3,964 nucleotides of DNA. Origin: Escherichia coli (lineage in GTDB: Bacteria > Pseudomonadota > Gammaproteobacteria > Enterobacterales > Enterobacteriaceae). The position numbers were made by a program, and so were the translations under genes. The stretch lies in assembly GCF_003334385.1 (NCBI RefSeq), contig NZ_QOWN01000090.1. One strand, 5' to 3'. The notes under the pieces were generated by a model. That model worked only from the letters and a program-made list of their open reading frames with translations. It was not told the DNA's origin and searched no databases. Of this stretch, positions 1 through 3,964 are shown piece by piece. Position 1 is the first letter of the stretch. Every line of letters starts with the position of its first letter.

Positions 1-2
1 TT

Positions 3-77
3 ATCGTGAGAGTAATTCATCGGCACGTTAAATCATATCAGGCGTAATACCACAACCCTTAAGTTAGCGCTTATGGG
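3..77. repeat. Left terminal inverted repeat, 75 bp, perfect reverse complement of 3890..3964
   Basis: Base-by-base comparison: reverse complement of 3890..3964 equals 3..77 with no mismatch. Identity breaks at 78 vs 3889, followed by about 10 bp of degenerate similarity (CTCCCC shared with a 1-nt offset). The repeat may extend past the window edge (positions 1-2). Confidence 0.9.
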
Positions 78-314
78 TTACCTCCCCGCATCCAGCAAGC
101 AGCGGACATCTGTCGTATCGTTGGTAACCAAGCTGTCCACCCCGGGGAGATTAGCCTTGAGGATGACCCGCAGTTAACGCATGGCCTCTTTAAGCTGTTG
201 AATATCATTGTAGATGACCGTATTACGAGACCAAAAGAGATCGAGGCGATGTTCCAGAGTATGCCTGAGGGACCACGGCAGGGCATCGAAAAGCGCGACA
301 AAAAGACAGCTTAG
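63..314 (+). pseudogene. 5'-truncated ORF remnant (83 codons, unknown product)
   Basis: Open frame begins directly after a TAA at 60..62 inside the left repeat and runs to TAG at 312..314. There is no in-frame start codon near its 5' end (first TTG at 198, first ATG at 249). The translation (..[40 protein letters not shown]..) has protein-like composition, unlike the opposite-strand ORF 71..301. Family not recognised. Confidence 0.3.
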
Positions 315-318
315 CAAT

Positions 319-341
319 TAATACGACTCAGTATGGGGAGA
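319..341 (+). promoter_or_regulatory. T7-type phage RNA polymerase promoter-like sequence (predicted +1 at 336)
   Basis: TAATACGACTCAGTATGGGGAGA matches the T7 consensus TAATACGACTCACTATAGGGAGA at 21 of 23 positions. Mismatches are at -5 (G for C) and -1 (G for A). The -17 to -6 specificity region is intact. Confidence 0.55.
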
Positions 342-428
342 GGGCCTCTGACGAACCCACAGATAGTGTGGTCTCATGCCCTTAGTTGCCCATATCTATT
401 TACGAATCCACCTTAAAGTCAATAGAAA

Positions 429-451
429 CAATACGACTCGCTAATGGGAGA
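429..451 (+). promoter_or_regulatory. Second T7-type promoter-like sequence, more diverged (predicted +1 at 446)
   Basis: CAATACGACTCGCTAATGGGAGA matches the T7 consensus at 19 of 23 positions. The ATACGACTC core and the GGGAGA initiation region are conserved. Same orientation as the first, about 110 bp downstream. Confidence 0.45.
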
Positions 452-589
452 GCGGTGACAAAAAGTTTTCCCTCTATGACAACTAACTGTAACTTATCGC
501 ATCCTTTCAGGGGCGGGATGACCAATTACAGACACCAAGCGTTCTACTTAAAGTGAATGCTTCCTGTGTGCTCTGGGTCAGTCGATAAG

Positions 590-780
590 TGAATAGCAAT
601 AGACATCATATTAACTATGGTCTCTGGTCTACAGGGGCTAAACTTAAAGTTTACTTAAAGACCTTAAAGTTATATTACTTGTTTACACAAGATAATAATA
701 AAAACTTAAAGAATAACTTTAAGAGTACTTATGATTATCTATCATTTAATCTTGTCATAATTCACTTTTGTAATAACTAA
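590..780. other. Strongly AT-rich tract, origin-like or regulatory
   Basis: Visibly the most AT-rich part of the window (roughly three quarters A+T by eye, not computed). It carries most of the CTTAAAG copies. The only ORF here (589..780) has an N/K/L/Y-rich translation typical of AT-rich noncoding DNA. Confidence 0.5.
642..723. repeat. Cluster of CTTAAAG heptamer repeats (iteron-like)
   Basis: Direct copies at 643..649, 654..660, 664..670 and 705..711, plus an inverted copy CTTTAAG at 717..723. Further direct copies lie upstream at 412..418 and 547..553. Three adjacent copies are spaced 11 and 10 bp apart, about one helical turn. Confidence 0.6.
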
Positions 781-1629: not shown

Positions 1630-1832
1630 ATAAGAGTATCAAGCTTGGCCCTCGTACACCAGAAAGCCGCAAAGCGTTACACCTGATGACAGTCGATAGT
1701 GCTTCCATTGTGCCCGCTTTGGGTTTGCCCCCCTCTTGATGAACCCTGTCTACGTAAAGGCTGCTTTGTGCCTCATCATAGTTGTTGTGGGATTATCATC
1801 TAAAGATTCTCATGGTTGATATAGGTGTCGGC

Positions 1833-1887
1833 GATCAATTTCAAATTATCGATCGAGATAAACGATCGGTGTGATGGCTGCAATCAC
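1833..1887. promoter_or_regulatory. Candidate operator: three GATC sites plus a GTGAT-N7-ATCAC inverted repeat upstream of the 158-aa ORF
   Basis: GATC at 1833..1836, 1851..1854 and 1864..1867. Small palindrome AATTTCAAATT at 1838..1848. Inverted repeat GTGAT (1871..1875) and ATCAC (1883..1887). All lie 45-100 bp upstream of GTG 1930. Confidence 0.2.
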
Positions 1888-1929
1888 GTTATCCTTTGGG
1901 CACCCTTCTGAAATTTTGAGGATATAAAT

Positions 1930-2406
1930 GTGTTTGGGCTTTTTAAGAAAAAGACAAAAGCGGAAAGACGCTATGATGTGACACGCATTCAGTACGAATT
2001 GGTCGTGATGTCATCTGGACTGATAAGCAAACAAACTGTGATGTTCAATGCTATGATGGATAAGGAGCGTAGAGAGTTAGAGGGCTCTCCGTATTTATCT
2101 GCGGGGTACATTACTCCTTGGGTTATTGGGTATATCACTGGCATTTTGGATGCGGTTACTCAAACTGAGGCTAACAGGATGGCATTTACGTCGGAAATGC
2201 TTGGGCTTATTTTTTCAGTCGTTTTCGGTGATGATAAGTCTCATGACGCCATGGTAACTTATATAGCCTGTAACGAAGCCTCCTCACCAGACCATGAATT
2301 TCATGTTACGTACGAGCTCTATATGACTGGTCTTGCGAAAGCTTTTAATGAGGTATGTGAGAATAAACCTGTAATAGGGCTCATGAACTATTTAATGCGG
2401 GATTAA
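1930..2406 (+). CDS. Hypothetical protein, 158 aa, unknown function
   Basis: Long open frame with protein-like composition. GTG start at 1930 is preceded by GAGG (1918..1921) with an 8-nt spacer. No family recognised and no obvious transmembrane segment or signal peptide. Confidence 0.65.
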   Translation: MFGLFKKKTKAERRYDVTRIQYELVVMSSGLISKQTVMFNAMMDKERRELEGSPYLSAGYITPWVIGYITGILDAVTQTEANRMAFTSEMLGLIFSVVFGDDKSHDAMVTYIACNEASSPDHEFHVTYELYMTGLAKAFNEVCENKPVIGLMNYLMRD

Positions 2407-2865
2407 AATTTCCTACAAAAATCTGAGCGTCTATCTAATAGTTCATCCTCTCGCGTTGTCCCCGTAGCCCTCCTTGAGTTTGCCCTGAAGCGAGGGAAGC
2501 TCCCCCCTTCAAGTCGAAAGATTGGGAACCTTCCAGATGTTCTGGCCTTGGTTCTATTCCGTTTGTGGGAATATTACAGGTATCCGACCTTGACCAGAGA
2601 TCACTCAGTGTGTAACCATAACTGTAACCAAATGGATTCATTATATCTTTAAGAAACAAATGGTTATTGAGTGATTGTCTTCGATGCTTCGATTCCCTTC
2701 GCCCGCTCCAATTTATCTTCGCCGTAATACTTCCCCATTTTGTTGTAAATAAAAAGCGTTTACGCAATGCAATCCTTTTGTAACAACCCAGGTAAAACAC
2801 CTTATTTTCAAGTTGTTAAATAAGTGGTTATCTACGCTTTTAACAAACGATTGATGGAATATTTT

Positions 2866-3660
2866 ATGAAAGGGAAATCTGCATTAACTCTTCTGCTCGC
2901 TGGTATATTTTCGTGCGGCACATGCCAGGCGACAGGGGCAGAAGTGACGAGTGAATCTGTATTTAACATTCTTAATTCCACGGGGGCAGCAACAGATAAA
3001 AGTTATTTATCGTTAAATCCAGATAAGTATCCTAATTATCGTCTTCTGATTCACTCAGCCAAATTACAAAATGAAATAAAGAGCCACTATACCAAAGACG
3101 AAATTCAAGGATTGCTAACATTAACAGAAAACACACGAAAGTTAACGTTGACGGAGAAACCCTGGGGAACGTTTATTCTTGCTTCTACTTTCGAAGATGA
3201 CAAAACAGCGGCAGAAACCCACTATGATGCTGTCTGGTTGAGGGATAGTTTATGGGGCTATATGGCATTAGTATCAGATCAGGGAAATAGTGTAGCCGCA
3301 AAAAAGGTTCTGCTCACCCTGTGGGATTATATGTCTACGCCCGACCAGATTAAGCGGATGCAGGACGTCATTAGCAACCCAAAACGACTGGATGGAATTC
3401 CCGTGCAAATGAATGCTGTGCATATCCGATTTGACAGCAACTCCCCCGTGATGGCAGATGTGCAGGAAGAAGGCAAGCCGCAGCTGTGGAACCATAAACA
3501 AAATGATGCTTTAGGTCTTTACCTTGATCTCCTTATACAAGCAATCAACACTGGTACTATTAACGCTGAAGATTGGCAAAAAGGTGACCGATTAAAGTCG
3601 GTTGCGCTGCTGATTGCTTATCTGGATAAAGCCAATTTCTATGTTATGGAAGATTCCTGA
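2866..3660 (+). CDS. Secreted GH15-family (glucoamylase-like) glycoside hydrolase, N-terminal part, ending at an in-frame TGA
   Basis: ATG 2866 is preferred over the track start 2824 because a signal-peptide-like N-terminus (MKGKSALTLLLAGIFSCGTCQA, then TGAEV) begins there; its ribosome-binding site is weak. GH15 motifs recognised by eye: AVWLRDSLWG (cf. YTWTRDSG) and QNDALGLY (cf. QRDGPAL). The frame stops at TGA 3658..3660, immediately before the catalytic motif. Confidence 0.6.
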   Translation: MKGKSALTLLLAGIFSCGTCQATGAEVTSESVFNILNSTGAATDKSYLSLNPDKYPNYRLLIHSAKLQNEIKSHYTKDEIQGLLTLTENTRKLTLTEKPWGTFILASTFEDDKTAAETHYDAVWLRDSLWGYMALVSDQGNSVAAKKVLLTLWDYMSTPDQIKRMQDVISNPKRLDGIPVQMNAVHIRFDSNSPVMADVQEEGKPQLWNHKQNDALGLYLDLLIQAINTGTINAEDWQKGDRLKSVALLIAYLDKANFYVMEDS

Positions 3661-3903
3661 GCATGGGAAGAAGATGCCCGATTAAACACATCTTCCGTTG
3701 CACTGGTGACCTCTGGACTGGAACGTTTGTCAAACCTACTCTCGAAGAAAGACTCTGTTTTTGTCTCTGATTTACTACGCGAAGCTAAAGTCAATGAACT
3801 GGATGAAACTCTTTCAACAACGAGGTTGAACCACCTCATAGATAAAGGTTATGAAAGAATAACGTTACAGCTTGATTTAGGGGGAGAATCCCATAAGCGC
3901 TAA
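3661..3903 (+). other. Same-frame continuation of the GH15-like gene after the internal TGA, with the WEE catalytic-acid motif; terminates at TAA inside the right repeat
   Basis: Codons after the TGA read AWEEDARLNTSSVALVTSGLERL.. (cf. GH15 DLWEEVNGSSF). This is the same reading frame as 2866..3660 (track ORF 3706..3903 lies in it). The frame ends at 3901..3903 inside the repeat, and the C-terminal half of a GH15 catalytic domain, including the catalytic base region, is absent. Confidence 0.5.
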
Positions 3904-3964
3904 CTTAAGGGTTGTGGTATTACGCCTGATATGATTTAACGTGCCGATGAATTACTCTCACGAT
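3890..3964. repeat. Right terminal inverted repeat, 75 bp, partner of 3..77
   Basis: Same comparison as the left copy. It contains the TAA (3901..3903) that terminates the long + strand reading frame. Confidence 0.9.

Follow-up and report, generated by a model that had tools for sequence, protein, structure and literature searches.

The 3,964-nt window of Escherichia coli DNA, by which we mean the whole stretch that was analyzed, is very probably a piece of ordinary chromosome bracketed by the inward-facing ends of two separate, inverted copies of IS421/IS186. The first copy would interrupt the defense gene razR of a small tRNA-Gly(CCC) island, and the second would lie 3.8 kb downstream in the ygeQ pseudogene of glycoside hydrolase family 15 (GH15), which adjoins the ETT2 type III secretion cluster. 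The 3.8-kb stretch that separates the two insertion sequences is neither a functional nor a mobile unit, and the terminal repeat is a finding of an ordinary, already known kind. The features of the window are collected in Table 1.

Table 1. Features of the window, with positions numbered from its first nucleotide
Feature	Positions	Strand	Remarks
First 75 nt of an IS421/IS186 copy (left)	1..75	-	75/75 identity to the 5′ end of the complete IS421 (1339 bp) in L003; 23-nt terminal inverted repeat at 53-75; transposase ATG at 20-18; IS body leftward, beyond the window
Left target site	76..88	.	GGTTACCTCCCCG (H7: GGGTTACCTCCCC); razR codons ~131-135
razR 3′ fragment (PD-T7-4/RAZR, DUF4145), residues 132-209	78..314	+	split by the left IS
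T7-class promoter look-alike 1	319..341	+	TAATACGACTCAGTATGGGGAGA; 2 mismatches to the T7 consensus
T7-class promoter look-alike 2	429..451	+	CAATACGACTCGCTAATGGGAGA; 4 mismatches
Conserved non-coding block 3′ of promoter 2	446..642	+	5′ stem-loop at 446-472; long-range stem AACTTATCG/CGATAAGT
CTTAAAG repeats in a ~80% AT stretch	643..780	+	repeats at 643, 654, 663, and 705
234-aa ORF, anti-repressor (Ant)/KilA-N-like	925..1629	+	PHROG matches to anti-repressor Ant families
158-aa ORF	1930..2406	+	conserved in the island family across Enterobacterales
attR of the tRNA-Gly(CCC) island	2688..2710	+	23-bp direct repeat of the tRNA 3′ end
ygeQ, N-terminal part of the GH15 gene	2866..3660	+	in-frame TGA at 3658-3660
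GH15 reading frame, continued	3661..3891	+	truncated by the right IS421
Right target site	3882..3891	.	one copy of the 10-bp duplication GGGAGAATCC within GGGGAGAATCCCC
First 73 nt of a second, inverted IS421/IS186 copy (right)	3892..3964	+	73/73 identity to the IS421 5′ end; inverted repeat at 3892-3914; transposase ATG at 3947; IS body rightward, beyond the window

Positions 3-77 and 3890-3964 were confirmed to be exact reverse complements (75/75), as a first-pass annotation of the sequence had claimed. A repeat search of the window extended the arms to 85 nt at 95% identity and found the interior not to be palindromic. A chance origin of the arms is impossible, since a repeat of this length occurs within only 3964 bases. 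The shared 75 nt consist of 73 nt of IS421 (positions 3-75 and 3892-3964) and 2 nt of flanking sequence (GG at 76-77 and CC at 3890-3891). The left arm begins at position 1, and it thus contributes 75 nt of the IS compared with 73 nt on the right. The additional GG/CC and the short degenerate extension toward the interior arise because both insertion sites have the shape of a G-run, N6, and a C-run.

The arms are the ends of IS421/IS186, a 1339-bp element of the IS4 family. Both correspond to the end that is proximal to the transposase start, and both insertion sequences read outward. The left arm matches the other end of IS421 at only 35 of 73 positions, the arms differing from that end past the 23-nt inverted repeat. 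This inverted repeat of IS186/IS421, CATAAGCGCTAACTTAAGGGTTG, is present in both arms. Each arm also holds the start codon of an outward-reading transposase, at the start annotated in L003 for an IS4-like element IS421 family transposase, and the first six codons lie within the window. The IS421 end was found in 2188 of 5426 complete E. coli genomes (~40%), with a median of 4 and a maximum of 22 copies, and annotated IS421 matches number in the thousands.

The arms are part of a 1339-bp IS421, and the proposal that the window forms a single unit with a terminal repeat of its own is not supported. A MITE-like non-autonomous element with 75-bp terminal inverted repeats, mobilized in trans, would account for the perfect repeats and for the lack of an internal transposase; ORF and profile checks of the window agree with the first-pass annotation that no transposase, integrase, or invertase is encoded in the interior. 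However, the true inverted repeat of IS421 is only 23 nt, the identity between the arms runs 73-75 nt into unique IS sequence, and this sequence includes the outward-reading transposase start codon. The tips of the inverted repeats (positions 75 and 3892) face inward, so the interior is outside both insertion sequences, whereas the tips of an element would point outward. The empty sites of E. coli H7 retain the interior, which must therefore have been there first. A MITE-like element is already refuted by these observations, and its probability is close to nil.

Positions 75-3892 are 100% identical to, and collinear with, the chromosome of H7, which is devoid of an IS at both sites. The segment was found only at the glyU-ETT2 chromosomal locus, and the only matches to the interior in the plasmid collection were records of 4.8-4.9 Mb. 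This collinearity with IS-free genomes and the absence of the interior from other loci leave the non-autonomous element without support. The segment also spans the boundary of an integrative island at attR. The tRNA-Gly(CCC) island has an integrase and a 23-bp attL and attR; the repeat TTCGATTCCCTTCGCCCGCTCCA is located in the H7 locus (L001) at 3846, inside the tRNA, and again at 8614, which corresponds to position 2688 of the window. In the island-free locus L003, the tRNA is joined straight to the downstream sequence. The repeat at the window ends thus belongs to a much longer one, the 1339-bp IS421, which is unrelated to the boundaries proposed at first, and the segment between the arms straddles attR; a longer repeat of this kind is what the first-pass annotation had itself named as a refutation. 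Beyond the island, ygeQ is so annotated in H7 and in further genomes, and the GH15 gene is intact (536 aa) in L005, L010, L013, and L014.

Both target sites have the form GGG-N6-CCCC, a shape that we derived solely from the sequences compared here. The target consensus of IS186 attributed to SaiSree in 2001 is reportedly roughly (G)≥4 N3-6 (C)≥4. The position of the right insertion in the ygeQ GH15 pseudogene is a recurrent hot spot. The 10-bp sequence GGGAGAATCC is present as a single copy in IS-free loci, and it is found on both sides of a complete IS421 in L002, L003, L018-L020, and L027-L030, with the IS in either orientation. In about nine complete genomes, the right junction leads into a full IS421 that is flanked by GGGAGAATCC, and the gene resumes beyond it; L003 has the same right junction as the window, together with a complete IS and its transposase gene. 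The opposite IS orientation at this position, with the duplication, occurs in L002, L018-L022, and L027-L031. A chimeric 65-aa ORF over the right junction was considered as a marker of orientation and was rejected; it ends within the 23-nt inverted repeat and is identical in both orientations.

The left site is unbroken in H7 (L001 ~6000-6013), where GGGTTACCTCCCC has the same G-run/N6/C-run shape as the right site; the second copy of a duplication would fall outside the window. An exact 41-mer across the left junction had no match among 5426 complete E. coli genomes or in the JGI metagenomes and IMG/VR, and the window was not recovered in a scan of one genome per species that used a pattern fitted by its own promoter. 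The left insertion rests on one sequence, since the junction was seen in none of these genome, metagenome, viral, and species-representative collections. The uniqueness of this junction, and the placement of the repeat exactly at the contig ends, would fit a pure artifact in which one IS copy or none is real, either as a chimeric or fold-back contig or as a circularization error. Such an error is a most improbable account. The left junction falls exactly at the IS terminus and within GGG-N6-CCCC, like the proven right site and unlike a random chimera; the right junction is confirmed independently by the complete genomes described above; and a non-palindromic interior is at odds with such an origin.

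The two arms are the same element as the IS186/IS421 known in E. coli from the lon-promoter hot spot, with 100% identity over 73-75 nt and the 23-nt inverted repeats. They also have in common the 10-bp duplication (at the right site), the G-run/N6/C-run sites, and a position that is hit in both orientations. In the lon promoter, IS186 inserts recurrently at one position and in both orientations (PMC3045373). There is no difference of substance, and the site in razR just adds one more case.

Two inverted copies of one IS around a few kb of DNA are also the arrangement of Tn10 and Tn5, and a composite transposon in which paired IS421 copies mobilize the 3.8-kb segment through their outer ends would fit this geometry; nothing in the window forbids it. 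We nevertheless consider it very unlikely. The interior is in its native collinear context and identical to the IS-free H7 chromosome, the right IS is a simple insertion that other genomes share, with a duplication of its own, and an IS-cargo-IS segment was found at no second locus or plasmid. The cargo would be half of an island and half of a pseudogene. In contrast to Tn10 and Tn5, there is no sign of movement here; the segment is native chromosome across an island boundary, and the two insertion sequences are apparently independent.

Homologous recombination works well on inverted repeats of 1.3 kb at a spacing of 3.8 kb, and it may have flipped the segment in the source genome. Inversion leaves the inner junctions as they are, and either orientation would give the same window. 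It is improbable, however, that the window is an invertible segment maintained in two orientations in the population, by RecA-dependent recombination or by an outside invertase. The arms are IS ends rather than the crossover sites of an invertase, and both an enhancer and an invertase gene are absent from the window. A search for an invertase gene was negative in the window and within 6 kb on each side of the IS-free H7 locus. None of the genes and promoters is placed so that a flip would switch its expression, and an inversion, if any, would be an accidental by-product. With arms that are IS ends and no invertase gene found, a programmed inversion of the kind initially suggested lacks support.

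The reading that we favor is that of two independent IS421 insertions. Ordinary cut-and-paste transposition would have brought each copy to its G-run/N6/C-run site, and the window would stop 73-75 nt inside each IS at the points where a short-read assembler was unable to cross a multi-copy repeat. Full IS bodies and the expected flanks would lie beyond both ends. On the left, the outer flank should consist of the 5′ part of razR with a ~10-bp GGTTACCTCC-type duplication, and on the right it should consist of GGGAGAATCC and then CCAGGTTATCTGG, with the rest of the GH15 gene. We regard the window as most likely a contig of a short-read assembly, with collapsed IS copies at its ends. Draft contigs of other assemblies end 27-31, 74, or ~355 nt into this IS, and contig breaks caused by IS186 are on record. 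Besides the single occurrence of the left junction and the possible inversion described above, two points stand against this account. The ends are asymmetric, with 75 and 73 nt of IS, for which a simple fixed-k explanation is not fully sufficient, and the IS bodies and outer flanks are outside the window, so that we infer two complete simple insertions rather than see them. Of the three alternatives offered by the first-pass annotation, DNA trapped between two inverted IS copies with their bodies outside the window proved to be the right one, and mobilization in trans and an invertible segment did not hold. A short contig with perfect inverted repeats at both ends is what one expects of unique DNA lying between oppositely oriented copies of a multi-copy IS, and such repeats should not be taken to mark the boundaries of an element.

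The sole biological effect is the knockout of razR, the abortive-infection gene RAZR, by the left copy of IS421 in this strain. The full protein from H7 matches the PADLOC profile for PD-T7-4 (E = 2.9e-100) and DUF4145 in Pfam. The intact H7 allele has the features of RAZR, namely, a zinc finger and a DUF4145/HEPN-like domain with an R...H motif; this motif (RIVGNQAVH) is encoded at positions 114-140 of the window. The allele in the window is disrupted, and the insertion was found nowhere else. Our reading of razR is based on RAZR biology as given in passages of PMC13017515. In work on RAZR/PD-T7-4 defense islands (Vassallo 2022, PMC9519451; Nature 2026, PMC13017515), PD-T7-4 is reported to adjoin an integrase gene, and the interrupted gene is likewise a close RAZR homologue next to an integrase gene, with the difference that it is split here by IS421.

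The interior contains the right half of a family of small tRNA-Gly(CCC) islands that is distributed across Enterobacterales. In these islands, tandem T7-group promoter sequences are located directly after a defense cargo gene, which is often RAZR. They are followed, in order, by a phi10-like stem-loop, a conserved structured block, a CTTAAAG/AT-rich element, and the genes for the Ant/KilA-N-like and 158-aa proteins. Using as the criterion a match to the 23-nt consensus from -17 to +6 with the phage-specific region from -12 to -8, both sequences in the window were identified as T7-group class III promoter sequences (mismatches in Table 1). Relatives have 0 mismatches to T7 and 0 to the phi9/10/13 promoter sequence of K11. 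Strains TOE17 and NMBU-W12E19 and K. pneumoniae ATCC 13883 carry perfect-consensus alleles. The T7 consensus is perfect in several E. coli islands; at the position of look-alike 1, which has a -5 G in common with T7 phi1.3, a 23/23 match is found in L002, L014, and L017. The position of look-alike 2 has 0-3 mismatches in relatives and is followed by the phi10-like 5′ stem-loop. Sequences identical to K11 class III promoters stand beside T7 promoters in K. pneumoniae ATCC 13883 and some E. coli; the K11 string was confirmed on the K11 genome and had no match in a literature search. In 126 kb of island-free DNA, there were no promoter matches at ≤5 mismatches.

The 5′ stem-loop that starts at the predicted +1 has apparently been kept through base changes on both sides, and this lends indirect support to a putative transcription by a phage RNA polymerase. 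The block at 446-642 is near-invariant in E. coli, Yersinia, and Rouxiella and is retained in part in Klebsiella, with an RNA fold z-score of -3.4 and one compensatory pair in Klebsiella; Rfam had no match anywhere in the window. CTTAAAG occurs nine times in the window, compared with 0.65 expected, and its copy number varies, with five copies in Yersinia. In a side-by-side comparison with T7 5905-6010 and K11 5775-5900, the AT-rich CTTAAAG element resembles that of the primary origins of these phages. As in the T7 primary origin (phi1.1A/phi1.1B and its AT-rich region) and the phi1.05 region of K11, tandem phage promoters are followed by an AT-rich stretch with CTTAAG/CTTTAAG/CTTAAAG repeats spaced 9-13 nt apart. 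The island differs in having a conserved block of ~190 nt between the promoters and the AT-rich element, and it has no overall sequence homology to phage genomes. T7 primase recognition sites by the AT-rich element were considered and set aside as evidence; they are enriched in E. coli and not in Klebsiella.

The 234-aa and 158-aa ORFs gave nothing significant in Pfam, NCBIfam, or PADLOC, and variants of the former in related islands are annotated as KilA-N. Homologues of the 158-aa ORF are found in Yersinia, Pectobacterium, and Morganella. Its predicted model is all-alpha and confident (pLDDT 86), and a structure search returned uncharacterized neighbors and no informative family match. The interior of the island had no homology to phage genomes at E ≤ 1e-5. 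Metagenomic contigs of 4-5 kb that carry the 158-aa gene are integrated copies of the island, and among the copies found all were integrated, with no excised or circular form seen.

The arrangement of these elements suggests that the island may exploit the RNA polymerase of an invading phage, and perhaps also the phage replisome, for its own activation or amplification during infection, either as a second defense layer triggered by the phage RNA polymerase or as a minimalist satellite of virulent T7-like phages; we would give this proposal an even chance of being correct. No description of this promoter and origin wiring was found in the literature searched, and the searched passages of PMC9519451 and PMC13017515 make no mention of a downstream T7/K11 promoter array or an origin-like element. 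The closest parallels to such a putative satellite are the PICMI and PLE satellites (PMC10803314; PLE papers), which share with the island its very small size, an integrase, a defense cargo, and cis elements matched to the machinery of a virulent phage. There is no gene homology between them, and the link of the island to a phage consists of the phage RNA polymerase promoters and the origin-like element. If confirmed, this would mean that chromosomal islands can be coupled to the RNA polymerases of virulent phages of the T7-like type, a novel means by which a host element senses or exploits such phages, which shut down host transcription.

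The perfect inverted repeat that the first-pass annotation had placed at the ends of the window was found to be real and far above chance, with positions 3-77 being the exact reverse complement of positions 3890-3964; when matching is relaxed, each arm extends to 85 nt at 95%. When the right arm was compared by BLAST with 5,426 complete E. coli genomes, 2,188 of these matched, at a median of 4 and a maximum of 22 places per genome, and the matches are annotated as "IS4-like element IS421 family transposase". A complete copy of IS421 was taken from strain 09-00049 (comparison locus L003, 7013-8351). 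It is 1339 bp long and has 23-nt terminal inverted repeats, CATAAGCGCTAACTTAAGGGTTG. Positions 3892-3964 are identical to nt 1-73 of this copy, and the reverse complement of positions 1-75 is identical to nt 1-75, whereas identity with the opposite end of the element is only 35/73 beyond the 23-nt inverted repeat. Both arms are therefore the same end of IS421, the one bearing the transposase start codon. Since the two copies read outward from the interior, and the tips of their repeats point toward it, the interior is DNA outside two insertion sequences. It is not the inside of an element, and the proposal that the whole window is one unit must be abandoned in favor of another offered with it, namely DNA trapped between two inverted IS copies whose bodies lie outside the window.

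Positions 75-3892 were found to be 100% identical, as a single piece, to the chromosome of E. coli H7 (NZ_CP010171), where both boundaries are free of IS. The order of the H7 locus is tRNA-Gly(CCC), a 4.8-kb island, ygeQ, and the ETT2 type III secretion cluster. Within the island are an integrase, a DUF4145 gene, 600 bp of intergenic DNA, and ORFs of 234 and 158 aa; at its two edges the 3' end of the tRNA is directly repeated over 23 bp, the right copy being attR. The DNA between the two ISs is thus not a coherent unit, since it consists of the right 2.6 kb of the island and 1.2 kb of a neighboring chromosomal gene. That gene, glycoside hydrolase family 15 (GH15), is intact (536 aa) in other strains (L005, L010, L013, and L014). 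In two loci (L006, 6871-8823, and L007, 6946-8160), a second, different integrase island directly follows the attR of the first, which indicates tandem accretion at tRNA-Gly(CCC).

The orientation of the repeat tips and the IS-free locus also rule out a MITE-like element, and with it the earlier suggestion of a non-autonomous unit mobilized in trans. The geometry would fit a composite transposon, in which two inverted IS421 copies move the segment together, but the segment is native and collinear, it was found at no other locus, and each IS looks like a separate insertion; we regard this explanation as highly improbable. A programmed invertible segment served by an outside recombinase was rejected, as neither invertase crossover sites nor a switchable arrangement is present and no invertase gene was found in the window or within 6 kb on either side of the IS-free H7 locus. 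An accidental RecA-mediated inversion between the IS copies is possible and would not be visible in the window.

The left and right insertion sites in the IS-free H7 chromosome are GGGTTACCTCCCC and GGGGAGAATCCCC, respectively. Their common shape (G-run/N6/C-run) is described here solely from these sequences; a target consensus for IS186, which is the same element as IS421, was published by SaiSree et al. 2001, as cited in PMC3045373. Of the 75 bases in the perfect repeat, 73 are IS sequence. The other two (GG/CC) and the degenerate inward extension arise because the two insertion sites look alike; the extension noted previously is present, and its source is not the IS.

The right junction occurs in about nine complete genomes, and a complete IS at this site has a 10-bp duplication, GGGAGAATCC, on both sides. 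The site GGGGAGAATCCCC is a recurrent IS421 target in unrelated strains (L002, L003, and L018-L031), and in L002, L018-22, and L027-31 the IS is inverted relative to the window at the same position and with the same duplication. Because one position and one duplication are found with either IS orientation, this is hot-spot behavior. Independent insertions of IS186 at one position and in either orientation are described for the lon promoter in PMC3045373. The left junction was absent from all 5,426 complete E. coli genomes and from the metagenome, viral, and species-representative collections searched. A pure chimera is nevertheless unlikely at this end, since the junction coincides exactly with the IS tip and the site has a G-run/N6/C-run shape like that on the right; the same features make a genuine private insertion the preferred reading.

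Draft contigs of other assemblies were found to end 27-31, 74, or ~355 nt inside IS421 (L023-25, L031, L021-22), and IS186 is documented to break contigs. At each side the 3964-base window stops 73-75 nt inside a multi-copy repeat, as would be expected if a de Bruijn assembler had left the unique segment between two repeat copies as a contig with its edges in the IS. The terminal repeat is a correct observation with an ordinary cause: two IS421 ends at contig edges.

Coordinates of features in the window and in comparison loci (L numbers); positions are those of the window unless a locus is named
Feature	Position	Strand	Remarks
IS421 transposase ATG, left arm	20-18	-	
razR, part in window	76-314		intact gene in E. 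coli H7, L001 5611-6240
T7-like promoter 1	319-341	+	2 mismatches
T7-like promoter 2	429-451	+	4 mismatches
Conserved block	within 446-642		~150 nt, after stem-loop
CTTAAAG repeats and AT stretch	643-780		
158-aa ORF	1930-2406		island relatives in Yersinia, Pectobacterium, Morganella
attR	2688-2710		
ygeQ			pseudogene, N-terminal part of GH15 gene, cut by in-frame TGA at 3658-3660 (GAAGATTCCTGAGCATGGGAAGAA)
Recurrent IS421 site	3874-3891		in GH15 gene
IS421 transposase ATG, right arm	3947	+	
T7-group promoter sites in loci with perfect T7 copies	L002 5004/5113; L014 5004; L015 5006; L016 4786/4904; L017 5245/5354		
K11/T7 arrays	L018 2995-3111; L039 7038-7154		

The DUF4145 gene of the island matches the PADLOC model PD-T7-4 with E = 2.9e-100. 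PD-T7-4 genes are reported to adjoin integrase genes (PMC9519451), and PMC13017515 describes PD-T7-4, renamed RAZR, as a zinc-finger/HEPN-like RNase that acts by abortive infection and is activated when it assembles around SECΦ27 Gp77 or around a portal protein (of T7, T3, or SECΦ18). The left IS421 splits razR after about residue 131. Residues 132-209 remain in the window, including the R...H catalytic motif, which is thereby separated from the zinc-finger part. Given this split, the allele should be inactive. This insertion was found in no other genome searched.

The promoter module in the interior is a lead separate from the terminal repeat. Directly after razR are two sequences like the T7 class III promoter TAATACGACTCACTATAGGGAGA, and the chance expectation for such sites is none. 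Perfect 23/23 T7 promoters occupy the homologous positions in diverged relatives of the island (L002, L014, L015, L016, and L017), and up to three tandem perfect copies are found in L032 (628/749/869) and L033. In Klebsiella pneumoniae ATCC 13883 (L039) and in E. coli loci L018, L024, L026, and L028, a K11-type promoter with 1 mismatch stands in an array with a perfect T7 promoter, AATTAGGGCACACTATAGGGAGA, and another K11-like site; phage K11 itself has exactly AATTAGGGCACACTATAGGGAGA at its φ9, φ10, and φ13 promoters. Further T7-type sites lie after the DUF4145 gene in Yersinia (L043), Rouxiella (L038), two metagenomic islands (L050 and L051), and, more diverged, Pectobacterium (L045). All of these sites are on the plus strand and, in most islands, directly after the cargo gene. 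At ≤5 mismatches, 126 kb of island-free sequence from these loci gave no match, and when one genome from each of ~100,000 species was scanned with a degenerate pattern, only Klebsiella and Rouxiella islands and three small contigs were returned. These controls support the specificity of the sites. The three contigs, of 0.5-5.4 kb, carry a perfect T7 promoter in identical context (AAATTAATACGACTCACTATAGGGAGACCCAAGCT) at L035 2373 (Pseudoalteromonas), L036 2323 (Proteiniclasticum), and L037 483 (Pseudomonas), and are probably cloning-vector contamination.

The module is carried by 91 of the 5,426 complete E. coli genomes, in each case chromosomally. Sequence shared between island variants begins at exactly position 316, 424, or 483 (the first being at promoter 1, the second at promoter 2, and the third shortly after it). 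The gene between the integrase and the promoters is RAZR in some variants and an unrelated 201-aa ORF in others, or no gene is annotated there (L002 4286-4891; L016 4664-5748), which suggests an upstream cargo slot ahead of a conserved promoter module. An IS3-family element separates the phage-type promoters from the Ant/KilA-N-like gene in L004, L008, and L011 (~3438-4666).

The transcript predicted from promoter 2 starts GGGAGAGCGG...TTTTCCCTCTA and has a 5'-terminal stem-loop, like the T7 φ10 leader GGGAGACCACAACGGTTTCCCTCTAGA. In Yersinia, Rouxiella, and L032, bases have changed on both sides of the stem, which nevertheless appears to be kept. The block that follows is near-invariant among E. 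coli, Yersinia, and Rouxiella, has no Rfam match, folds better than shuffled sequence (z = -3.4), and contains a long-range stem in which Klebsiella shows one compensatory change. Beyond it lies CTTAAAG-ttta-CTTAAAG-ac-CTTAAAG, in a stretch of ~80% AT. The window holds 9 copies of CTTAAAG versus 0.65 expected; the iterated repeats in the AT stretch are spaced 9-13 nt, and the copy number varies between islands, with five in Yersinia. Similar elements are CTTAAG-gtttaa-CTTTAAG-acc-CTTAAG after φ1.1B of T7 (L041 5905-6010) and three copies of CTTAAAG after φ1.05 of K11 (L040 5775-5900). The T7 region after φ1.1B is the primary replication origin of that phage, and the island element resembles the AT-rich part of the primary origins of T7 and K11. 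Two genes follow the AT stretch, an Ant/KilA-N-like ORF and the 158-aa ORF. The latter belongs to a family that occurs across Enterobacterales and gives a confident all-alpha model (pLDDT 86), whose structural neighbors are uncharacterized proteins only, with no informative relative.

In the literature searched, we found no account of such promoters within RAZR islands, nor of any T7-group satellite; PICMIs and PLEs are the nearest kinds known. No excised form of the island was found in the metagenomic contigs examined, and no packaging signal was recognized in the island. T7-like phages shut off the host RNA polymerase. An island acting during infection might use the polymerase of the phage itself, and by carrying promoters for more than one phage it would broaden its range. 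One possibility is a second layer of defense, in which phage RNAP would trigger expression of the two ORFs. Another is that an origin mimic may allow satellite-style amplification and transfer of the island.
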